A stretch of 64,000 nucleotides of DNA, taken from the IMG/VR virus record IMGVR_UViG_3300031963_000063, positions 21,487 to 85,486 of that record. One strand, given 5' to 3'. This stretch comes from a virus. Under the pieces are notes generated by a model. It was not told where the DNA came from, searched no databases, and saw only the letters and a list, made by a program, of their open reading frames with translations. Positions 4,533 through 62,411 of the stretch are shown here, piece by piece. Made by a program: the position numbers and the translations under genes. Within the stretch, counting starts at the first letter, position 1. Every line of letters starts with the position of its first letter.

Positions 4533-4562
4533 AAGATATCATTCTCTCAAAGCATTTTATCA

Positions 4563-4590
4563 TAAAAAAAGGAGGGGATCAACCCCTCCT
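4563..4590 (-). terminator. Rho-independent terminator of the riboswitch operon
   Basis: GGAGGGG/CCCCTCC hairpin followed by T7 on minus strand. Confidence 0.8.
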
Positions 4591-4597
4591 TAAAAAT

Positions 4598-4684
4598 TTA
4601 CTTATAAATCCACTGAATGTACGTTGATAACAATATCGTCATTAACGCAATTGCAGCAGTTGAAGAAATTAGAAATTGTACCAT
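4598..4684 (-). CDS. 28-aa hydrophobic peptide (MVQFLISSTAAIALMTILLSTYIQWIYK)
   Basis: TGATG coupling to upstream ORF; single TM-like segment. Confidence 0.5.
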   Translation of the reverse strand: MVQFLISSTAAIALMTILLSTYIQWIYK

Positions 4685-4782
4685 CACTTTGCTCCAACTA
4701 GTTGTGCTAGTTGTGCTTGATGACGACGATCTTCTTTTTGTTTTTGTTCTTTAATAAGTTGTAGGAAGTTAAGTTTTTTCAC
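4684..4782 (-). CDS. 32-aa basic helical peptide (MKKLNFLQLIKEQKQKEDRRHQAQLAQLVGAK)
   Basis: GTG start overlapping the stop of the DUF4278-like ORF (GTGA), GGAGG RBS. Confidence 0.6.
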   Translation of the reverse strand: MKKLNFLQLIKEQKQKEDRRHQAQLAQLVGAK

Positions 4783-4937
4783 TTCTGCACCTCCGCATTT
4801 CTGCAAGGACGGTATGCTACTCCACGATATGTGTTTTGTGGATGAGCAGGAGCGTGTGTTTGGTTATACCATGACACATACTCTTTCTTTGCATTTTCGG
4901 TGTCGTACTGACAACCTCTATAAACGACTTTAGACAT
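4779..4937 (-). CDS. DUF4278-like (YRG-motif) small protein, 52 aa
   Basis: MSKVVYRGCQYD...NTYRGVAYRP: two YRGxxY motifs; AAGGAG RBS; directly downstream of glutamine-aptamer-like RNA. Confidence 0.75.
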   Translation of the reverse strand: MSKVVYRGCQYDTENAKKEYVSWYNQTHAPAHPQNTYRGVAYRPCRNAEVQK

Positions 4938-4968
4938 TAGGTTTTCTCCTTAATTTTGAGGCTAAAGA

Positions 4969-5138
4969 GCGTTCCTTCAGTCGGCTTTTGCGTCTATGGG
5001 ACAAGTTTTTGGAGAGACTTGTTTAATCTCCCAAATTAAATCATTCTTTGCTTGTTTGGGAATATCTACTGTGTAAATTCTCCCAACCATTAATTGTGCC
5101 TGTAAGCAAGTTAAAATGATTGCTTCCATAGATGAACG
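4969..5138 (-). ncRNA. glnA-type glutamine riboswitch aptamer 2 (P2 loop expanded by an ORF)
   Basis: CGTTCA-TCTATGG...CCATAGA-CGCAAAAGCCGACTGAAGGAACGC; P1 CGTTC/GAACG and 7-bp P2 pair. Confidence 0.7.
4977..5129 (-). CDS. 50-aa two-Cys protein nested in aptamer 2 (MEAIILTCLQAQLM...KTCPIDAKAD)
   Basis: Translated by hand; ATG lies in P2 5' strand, and the C-terminal codons and stop are the aptamer core. Confidence 0.65.
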   Translation of the reverse strand: MEAIILTCLQAQLMVGRIYTVDIPKQAKNDLIWEIKQVSPKTCPIDAKAD

Positions 5139-5394
5139 TTCCGTTCCGAGTCGGCTTACTTCCGTCCTATTTAATTTTTAGCACTTTATAATTACGTCTT
5201 TTCGCAATTCTAATAGCAATCGGTCTTCAATCTTTTGGTGAACAACATCGTCGTTTTTAACGATGTCCATTAGTTCCCACGCTGCATTACAACTTATTGT
5301 GACTGGATATTCAGTTTTGATAAGTTGTGGTGAAGCAACAGAAAGAAGTGGAACCCATGCTAAAAGCAAAAGTGCTTTAGTCATAGGATGAACG
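5137..5394 (-). ncRNA. glnA-type glutamine riboswitch aptamer 1 (P2 loop expanded by an ORF)
   Basis: CGTTCA-TCCTAT...ATAGGA-CGGAAGTAAGCCGACTCGGAACGGAACG; conserved GGAAGTAAG junction, P1 and P2 pairing. Confidence 0.7.
5178..5384 (-). CDS. 68-aa two-Cys protein with signal-peptide-like N-terminus, nested in aptamer 1
   Basis: ORF track; hydrophobic N-terminus; resembles the 4977-5129 product. Confidence 0.7.
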   Translation of the reverse strand: MTKALLLLAWVPLLSVASPQLIKTEYPVTISCNAAWELMDIVKNDDVVHQKIEDRLLLELRKDVIIKC

Positions 5395-5441
5395 TTAGGG
5401 GATTATTATACCCCTATTCATAGTATATAGGTAGTTTTGTG

Positions 5442-5457
5442 TGTATTTCCTGATACA
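5442..5457. promoter_or_regulatory. NtcA binding site
   Basis: TGTA-TTTCCTGA-TACA = TGTA-N8-TACA, 15 nt upstream of a minus-strand TATACT -10 (5422-5427). Confidence 0.7.
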
Positions 5458-5517
5458 ATTTTAAAAAACTTTAGAAACCAAAAATTTTGCCGGAAAAATT
5501 TCCCCCTATTTGGGGAA

Positions 5518-5871
5518 TCACTTCCTCTTTTTGGTTTTCGGTGCTTGATAACCCCACAGTTTAGGATTGATTCTACCATAACCAAAGTCAATACTCTTCA
5601 AATTCTCACGAAACTTATCCCAGTACATATCAAACAATTTAGATCTCGTACCTCTTGTGAGATCAAAACAAATATTTTCTTCTACAAAATACTTGACAAT
5701 ATAAGCATCATTTGGTGCTTCTTTAGTGCAAACTTCAGCATACGAACCATTTTCAATCAGAACATCACACCCATAACGTGCTTTGCAATTCTCTTTTTCT
5801 GCTGGTGTCCAATAATCCATATGCTTTTCCGTATTGTGGGGTTTTTCAACTACATCACGAACTTGACTCAT
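5518..5871 (-). CDS. Conserved cyanophage hypothetical protein
   Basis: ORF track (start trimmed to MSQVRD); FDMYWDKF...GRINPKLW. Confidence 0.65.
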   Translation of the reverse strand: MSQVRDVVEKPHNTEKHMDYWTPAEKENCKARYGCDVLIENGSYAEVCTKEAPNDAYIVKYFVEENICFDLTRGTRSKLFDMYWDKFRENLKSIDFGYGRINPKLWGYQAPKTKKRK

Positions 5872-62324: not shown

Positions 62325-62411
62325 CGGAAGGTGGGAGAGTCGAACTCCCAAGGGCTTTAACACCTCAACTGTTTTCAAGACAGGTACCGTCGCCAATCGG
62401 TTTGACCTTCC
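62325..62411 (-). tRNA. tRNA-Ser (TGA)
   Basis: GGAAGGT/ACCTTCC acceptor, CT-TGA-AA loop, long variable arm. Confidence 0.92.

Follow-up and report, generated by a model that had tools for sequence, protein, structure and literature searches.

Two-cysteine mini-protein genes nested in putative tandem glutamine-I aptamers of cyanophages

Can the hairpin loop of a riboswitch aptamer house a genuine protein gene? The question arises from a locus in a 64,000-nucleotide stretch of viral DNA (hereafter the window), which is part of an 85-kb IMG/VR record from a freshwater T4-like cyanophage with wcaG and PhotoRC-II RNAs on board. The same virus is seen again in freshwater and lake metagenomes. In a preliminary description, two small ORFs had been noticed at this locus, each nested in a riboswitch aptamer. 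They were proposed to be paralogs that had been duplicated together with their aptamer, and to encode disulfide-linked helical hairpins that perhaps serve as effectors depending on nitrogen status. Their coordinates and residues were all confirmed on the minus strand, as were the shared motifs (S/T)C-x-x-A and L-x-x-E-(L/I)-(R/K) and two cysteines, 36 residues apart in ORF1 (Cys32-Cys68) and 35 in ORF2 (Cys8-Cys43). The flanking of both ORFs by CGTTCA and by 3' aptamer halves is likewise found in the window.

From 5416 to 4779 on the minus strand, the locus comprises an inverted repeat with a TATAAT box, aptamer 1 with ORF1, aptamer 2 with ORF2, an anti-SD/SD hairpin and ORF3 (Table 1). The arms of the inverted repeat covary among relatives (TAGAGG/CCTCTA, TAGGAG/CTCCTA), and the element could serve as a palindrome for protein binding or form a hairpin at the 5' end. 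In some relatives, such as L131, a -35-like hexamer is present 17 nt upstream. In the 5' half of aptamer 1, the hairpin strand takes in the A and U of the ORF1 AUG. The 3' half of aptamer 1, which begins ATAGGACGGAAG (5170-5142), follows ORF1 and is 93-97% identical in many cyanophages; between ORF1 and the CGTTCA of aptamer 2 stands ATAGGACGGAAGTAAGCCGACTCGGAACG, read on the minus strand. The 3' half of aptamer 2, CCATAGACGCAAAAGCCGACTGAAGGAACG as DNA (4999-4970), overlaps the end of ORF2. The UGA stop codon (4979-4977) falls within it, and the last five residues plus stop (DAKAD*) are this half read in frame.

Table 1 Parts of the nested tandem aptamer locus and their positions in the window
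Feature	Position	Strand	Basis or remark
Inverted repeat TAGGGG / CCCCTA around TATAAT -10 box (5410-5405)	5396..5416	-	Sequence; abuts aptamer 1 upstream
Aptamer 1, 5' half: P1 CGUUCA (5394-5389), hairpin strand UCCUAU (5388-5383)	5383..5394	-	
ORF1, 68 aa: signal-like N-terminus and predicted two-cysteine helical hairpin (Cys32, Cys68), family F1	5178..5384	-	
Aptamer 1, 3' half: AUAGGA, junction CGGAAGUA, small hairpin GCCGAC, P1 GGAACG	5142..5170	-	
Aptamer 2, 5' half: CGUUCA (5138-5133), hairpin strand UCUAUGG (5132-5126) with the AUG of ORF2 inside	5126..5138	-	
ORF2, 50 aa: predicted two-cysteine helical hairpin (Cys8, Cys43), tail DAKAD*, family F0	4977..5129	-	
Aptamer 2, 3' half: CCAUAGA, junction CGCAAAA, GCCGAC, P1 strand GAAGGAACG	4970..4999	-	
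Predicted expression platform, in which CUCUUUAG (4969-4962) base-pairs with the ORF3 Shine-Dalgarno sequence UUAAGGAG (4953-4946)	4946..4969	-	Minimum-free-energy fold
ORF3, 52 aa, DUF4278 / IF17-like	4779..4937	-	Pfam and PHROG profile matches

ORF3 matches Pfam DUF4278 (PF14105) with an E-value of 1.5e-4 and 22.5 bits, the gathering cut-off being 25.3, and phrog_5049 with an E-value of 1e-11. Tandem glutamine-I riboswitches (glnA RNA, RF01739) are known to precede DUF4278/IF17-like genes in cyanobacteria and cyanophages (PMC2864571, PMC6212724), and the tandem pair of phage S-CREM1 has been annotated as a glnA riboswitch (PMC9964418). By analogy with the context described in PMC6212724, ORF3 is the conventional gene under control of the tandem riboswitch. 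The predicted pairing of CUCUUUAG with the ORF3 Shine-Dalgarno sequence is conserved among relatives, as judged by eye. A ribosome terminating at the ORF2 stop is close enough to cover this predicted anti-SD.

The Rfam Glutamine model RF01739 consists of a P1 helix (CGUUC/GAACG), a 5-bp hairpin located right behind CGUUCA, the junction CGGAAGUA, a small hairpin and the return strand of P1. Both aptamers of the window have the P1 strands, CGTTCA upstream and GGAACG downstream. The first hairpin is also recognizable, UCCUAU/AUAGGA closing across ORF1 and UCUAUGG/CCAUAGA across ORF2, beside the junction ACG(G/C)AA. Judged by these elements, the locus carries two tandem glutamine-I (glnA-type) aptamers, with ORF1 and ORF2 filling the terminal loops of their respective first hairpins. 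With known tandem glutamine-I riboswitches, the locus shares the P1 strands, the junction sequences, the tandem arrangement and the class of the downstream gene. However, the hairpin loop of the known riboswitches measures 4-20 nt, whereas here it holds a whole gene of 144-228 nt that sets the aptamer halves far apart. In the literature searched, of which the coverage is incomplete, no description of genes inside glutamine aptamers was found.

No glutamine match was returned by Rfam cmscan for window positions 4700-5600 at E <= 10 (gathering threshold 35 bits), and RF01739 and RF01704 gave only chance-level matches elsewhere over the whole 85-kb virus record. The lack of a match at the locus itself is due to the ORFs, which replace both first-hairpin loops. 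Short-loop orthologs of the aptamers score 33-34 bits against RF01739 in S-CREM1, S-PM2 and DSL-LC03, and two short-loop aptamers on an IMG/VR contig (L073) reach 38-40 bits. Genes placed in aptamer loops thus cause standard tools to miss the riboswitch. The nested genes themselves are also missed in some records, as illustrated by the ORF2 homolog of DSL-LC03, which is unannotated.

Across the long inserts of the related loci, the closing-stem pairs include UCUAUGG/CCAUAGA, UCCUUA/UAAGGA, UCUCAU/AUGGGA, UCCCA/UGGGA and UCUUAU/AUAAGA. For ORF2-type inserts, these strands covary: cognate partners form 6.63 bp on average versus 4.22 +/- 0.26 bp for shuffled partners (maximum 5.12). The corresponding values for ORF1-type inserts are 5.06 and 4.85 bp and the covariation is not significant, a test made uninformative because the strands of aptamer 1 hardly vary. 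Two other registers were rejected for helices far shorter than those of the nested one, namely a permuted local aptamer made of the middle element (the 3' half of aptamer 1 plus the 5' half of aptamer 2) and the pairing of the outer aptamer halves with each other. In a plain free-energy fold of the 463-nt leader, which is much more stable than that of shuffled sequences (z = -6.4), both closing stems form, and CGUUC of aptamer 1 pairs with GAACG of aptamer 2 rather than within each aptamer.

The nested layout is widespread. An IMG/VR scan yielded 127 related loci with the conserved middle element, the window and loci of phage isolates included. Among the unique combinations of aptamer 1 and aptamer 2, the loops are short/short in 19, short/long in 48, long/short in 8 and long/long in 17. 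Double nesting is also observed in P-SSM4, where the pair PSSM4_169.2/169.3 is a nested arrangement like that of the window, and in marine virus AG-345-L05. Nesting affects aptamer 2 only in P-SSM2, DSL-LC02, DSL-LC03 and S-SRM01. Ordinary short loops before a DUF4278-like gene are found in the tandem pairs of S-CREM1 and S-PM2, as well as in the first aptamer of DSL-LC03, DSL-LC02 and S-SRM01. In three studies, metatranscriptome contigs span the ORF1, ORF2 and aptamer sequences of close relatives, evidence that by its nature cannot prove transcription, ends or strand. At the ORF2 site (window 4994-5131), three metatranscriptome contigs from two studies are joined exactly across and carry short loops such as GGGAAACC instead; a weaker joint occurs in a third run. 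Natural variants thus exist with and without the nested gene in the hairpin loop.

Once the tails encoded by the aptamer RNA are trimmed off, BLAST links group the nested ORFs into four families. F0, with 67 sequences that all belong to aptamer 2, includes ORF2 and corresponds to phrog_504. F1 (19 sequences, aptamer 1) includes ORF1 and has no Pfam or PHROG match. F2 (10 sequences, aptamer 1, P-SSM4 type) is phrog_6471, and F3 (4 sequences, aptamer 2, with a signal-like N-terminus) is phrog_13397. Taken alone, the ORF2 of the window scores an E-value of 0.041 against phrog_504, and other F0 members 5.7e-16 to 3e-5. These three PHROGs, like T4-GC 429/430 in P-SSM4, are catalogued without function, riboswitch link or relation between families. 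ORF1 itself has no match in Pfam or PHROG. F1 has no member in 50,697 GenBank phage records; 185,579 species genomes yielded one, on a contig of a lake MAG. All known F1 members are from uncultured freshwater phages.

ORF1 and ORF2 are real protein-coding genes and evolve under purifying selection. Every long loop contains an intact ORF (34/34 in aptamer 1 and 78/78 in aptamer 2 of the 127 loci), and all 112 ORFs start 9-12 nt past CGTTCA and end at or in the 3' half. Among unique inserts, the frame in question is open in 30/30 cases for aptamer 1 and 71/71 for aptamer 2, the other two sense frames in none, and antisense frames are rarely open. The median dN/dS is 0.31 for the ORF1 type, and 0.14 and 0.25 for the P-SSM4 aptamer-1 type (F2) and the ORF2 type, from both of which the aptamer-encoded ends were first removed; variation is in excess at third positions. 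Both cysteines are invariant in 67 F0 and 34 F1 sequences. A word-indexed protein search retrieved 251 ORF1 and 106 ORF2 clusters, nearly all of them called hypothetical proteins and a few bearing evidently spurious names, and the ORF2-family profile retrieved 289 representative clusters at 50% identity. One could suppose instead that the inserts are structured, non-coding expansions of the hairpin whose open frames are accidental, as the leader does fold much better than shuffled sequences and Rfam-type models tolerate loop insertions. Yet with 112 of 112 frames intact, none of the alternative sense frames open, dN/dS below 1, an excess of third-position changes and hundreds of protein clusters, this is scarcely credible.

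The RNA nevertheless leaves its mark on the coding sequence. Synonymous variation is almost nil in codons 1-15 of ORF1 (window 5340-5384), and in the predicted fold GCACUUU, at codons 4-6, is paired with AAAGUGC, at the last codons (5178-5190). At either end, the coding sequence is therefore also subject to constraint from the RNA. In most aptamer-2 ORFs the C-terminus is DAKAD, the in-frame translation of GACGCAAAAGCCGACUGA in the aptamer. In others, the same RNA read in another frame gives the tail ...TQKPTKGTE, and some read through (L107 and, among the matches listed, P0273, P0298 and P0349). Since the tail differs with the reading frame of the same RNA, it is dictated by the RNA and not by the protein. 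Some features common to ORF1 and ORF2 could accordingly be imposed by the RNA.

Are the nested ORFs always flanked by aptamer halves, a point raised in the preliminary description? With a protein-only search, made independently of the RNA, both halves flank 75 of the 79 evaluable ORF1-type loci and all 78 evaluable ORF2-type loci, so that the aptamer association is a rule for the nested ORFs but not an absolute one. At three loci (L194, L205 and L206), the promoter and ORF1 are kept, the 5' half has decayed to CAGTTCA and a terminator comes directly after ORF1; neither the aptamer nor a DUF4278 gene is present there. In a codon alignment, the dN/dS between the two lineages formed by these stand-alone ORF1 copies is still 0.40-0.47 at a dS of 0.43-0.51. 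At another locus (L154), where the middle element and the last 3' half are both missing, ORF1 and ORF2 are ordinary neighbors and the tail of ORF2 is altered, with a terminator behind it. In addition, one of the two distant F0 representatives whose context was viewed (L292) is a free-standing homolog that has a GAGG ribosome site of its own and lacks aptamer halves; it matches the F0 profile with an E-value of 3e-8 and phrog_504 with 1.8e-6. Stand-alone copies are kept after loss of the aptamer, and the proteins therefore matter in their own right.

These copies bear on the view that the nested ORFs are mainly cis-acting leader ORFs, the translation of which opens or closes the aptamer and couples it to ORF3, the peptides having no function. 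Such a role would suit a start codon in the stem and a stop codon in or beside the 3' half, as well as an ORF2 stop located 39 nt before the ORF3 AUG, next to the predicted anti-SD. It also has a precedent, which is the nearest one for the nested ORFs as a whole: a translated 16-codon uORF inside the B12 aptamer of Mycobacterium tuberculosis metE (PMC11260477). In both cases the ORF sits within an aptamer, and translation is expected to disturb folding of the switch. However, the metE uORF overlaps the aptamer core and provides no evidence of a conserved peptide, whereas the ORFs of the window fill a loop and encode conserved proteins of 50-68 residues that also survive without the aptamer. 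The dN/dS values of 0.14-0.31, the invariant cysteine and helix residues, the ORFs retained under purifying selection after aptamer loss and the free-standing homolog all speak against peptides without function, and make a purely cis-acting role improbable. A role in cis may still accompany one in trans.

What kind of proteins are these? By inspection, ORF1 begins with an n-region (MTK), followed by a 13-residue hydrophobic core, an invariant Ser15 and Ala or Ser at position 17. This resembles a cleavable signal peptide, removal of which would yield a mature part of about 51 residues. ORF2 begins with Met-Glu and has no signal-like N-terminus, and this feature is thus specific to ORF1, as had been noted. 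AlphaFold2 predicts a helix-turn-helix for both proteins, with helices 8-20 and 25-37 in ORF2 (pLDDT 86) and helices 32-44 and 50-67 in ORF1, the latter model being of low confidence (pLDDT 63.5). The first helix begins at the first cysteine in both models. The models suggest a common plan, in which a hydrophobic N-terminal stretch precedes a cysteine that opens helix 1, followed by a turn, an amphipathic helix 2 and a cysteine near the C-terminus. The two-cysteine helical hairpins of the preliminary description therefore agree well with the prediction for ORF2 and less firmly with that for ORF1.

Database searches with these proteins led to no function. Pfam gave nothing meaningful for any of the 67 F0 members. 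Foldseek against the PDB and a wide VIA-align search found generic helical hairpins only (best E 3.9, best Z 5.1). A BFVD search found only uncharacterized small cyanophage proteins, and the ESM Atlas only unnamed clusters, all < 0.9. Three candidate assignments were rejected: a lipoprotein lipobox at the first cysteine, as too few residues lie ahead of it in F0; an NblA-like function, for which there is no Pfam or fold match and which would have to serve in Prochlorococcus hosts without phycobilisomes; and a CP12-like cysteine pair, the spacing of which differs.

The common plan raises the question of common descent. Profile comparison of F3 with F0 (P 6e-6, probability 85%) shows these two families to be demonstrably homologous. 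F2 aligns with F0 over nearly its full length (P 0.002, the score being matched by 2 of 200 column shuffles). Between F1 and F0, hhalign gives P-values of 0.0012-0.0033 at a probability of 10-20%, with the first cysteine and helix 1 aligned. This alignment sets TISC...ELM of ORF1 against ILTC...QLM of ORF2, as the alignment by eye had done. The score is reached by 0 of 200 column shuffles, a procedure that breaks helical periodicity and may overstate significance. A global alignment of F1 and F0 superimposes both cysteines with P 0.027. From these comparisons, distant paralogy to F0 is probable for both F1 and F2, and the paralogy of ORF1 and ORF2 that had been proposed appears somewhat better than an even bet, its support being weak.

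Alternatively, ORF1 and ORF2 could both be real and non-homologous, their likeness resulting from common constraints: a start codon in a stem, the lack of a Shine-Dalgarno sequence, U-rich hydrophobic first codons, a size limit, and a stapled helical hairpin selected independently. The low hhalign probability, a local alignment limited to helix 1, the lack of any similarity in the profile comparison of F1 with F2, the confinement of each family to one aptamer position and the RNA constraint visible at the ORF ends are what would be expected. On the other hand, no column shuffle matched the F1-F0 score, and both cysteines, their spacing and the second-helix motif come in the same order in both ORFs. 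In most loci, the contiguous stem does not include the second cysteine codon, which is hence not dictated by the RNA. Moreover, F3, which has a signal-like N-terminus as ORF1 does, is clearly homologous to F0. We consequently hold independent origin to be the less probable of the two, though a serious possibility. Whether they carry ORFs or not, aptamers 1 and 2 differ in the same position-specific ways; short-loop tandems exist, all four occupancy states are found and each family keeps to one position. The suggested duplication of aptamer and ORF as one unit is therefore one of several conceivable orders of events.

How would such genes be expressed? In every long-insert case, the closing stem contains the start codon or has it at its edge, and no Shine-Dalgarno-like sequence precedes the nested ORFs, while ORF3 has AAGGAG. 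Hence, the folded, glutamine-bound aptamer should occlude initiation on the nested ORF. Conversely, a ribosome initiating or terminating there would keep the two aptamer halves unpaired. Glutamine is an ON signal for gifB (PMC6212724). Synthesis of the mini-proteins would then take place mainly when glutamine is low, and that of the IF17-like product of ORF3 when it is high. Termination at the ORF2 stop, which lies 39 nt upstream of the ORF3 AUG, could also open the ribosome site of ORF3. The ORF1 product would be located outside the cytoplasm, where a disulfide is feasible, and the ORF2 product inside; both are expected to act in trans.

We favor, with a probability of about 0.6, the reading in which the nested ORFs are selected genes of cyanophage-specific two-cysteine families, encoding mini-proteins that act in trans and are made when the aptamer is unfolded; we further infer that their synthesis is coupled inversely to glutamine, that the two products occupy different compartments and that a disulfide forms. 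A more specific proposal is tentative and, in our view, rather unlikely to hold in full. It pictures the tandem riboswitch as a two-output device whose ligand-bound fold turns on the IF17-like gene and buries the start codons of the loop genes, the two-cysteine mini-proteins being nitrogen-starvation effectors, one exported and the other cytoplasmic, which the phage produces only if its host runs short of glutamine. Loop-housed genes would in that case be a general phage route to inverse regulation by one sensor.

Overall, aptamer loops, in many cyanophages, hold conserved protein genes, although riboswitch aptamers are usually treated as compact non-coding domains. Group I introns carry ORFs in peripheral loops, and dual-function RNAs also exist. 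As an analogy, the intron ORFs resemble the nested ORFs in that a protein gene is housed in the loop of a structured RNA; unlike them, the nested ORFs involve neither a homing endonuclease nor splicing, and the two are unrelated in sequence. If the nested genes are indeed translated inversely to glutamine binding, a single sensor would provide opposite outputs. The mini-proteins form a large phage-restricted family associated with host nitrogen status, which is among the main factors that control how cyanophages are produced in lakes and oceans.

Further elements were observed around the locus and its relatives. Downstream of ORF3, at 4598-4806 on the minus strand, two tiny overlapping ORFs encode a basic peptide of 40 residues and a hydrophobic one of 29 residues, and a terminator-like hairpin follows them at about 4560-4595. 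Elsewhere in the window, at 62326-62411 on the minus strand, a tRNA-Sec model matches at exactly its gathering score (47 bits) within a phage tRNA cluster. Finally, P-SSM4 (L008, 219-404) and one IMG/VR contig (L073, 1299-1496) carry a manA RNA (RF01745, 176-184 bits) about 100 nt ahead of the nested tandem riboswitch on its upstream side.
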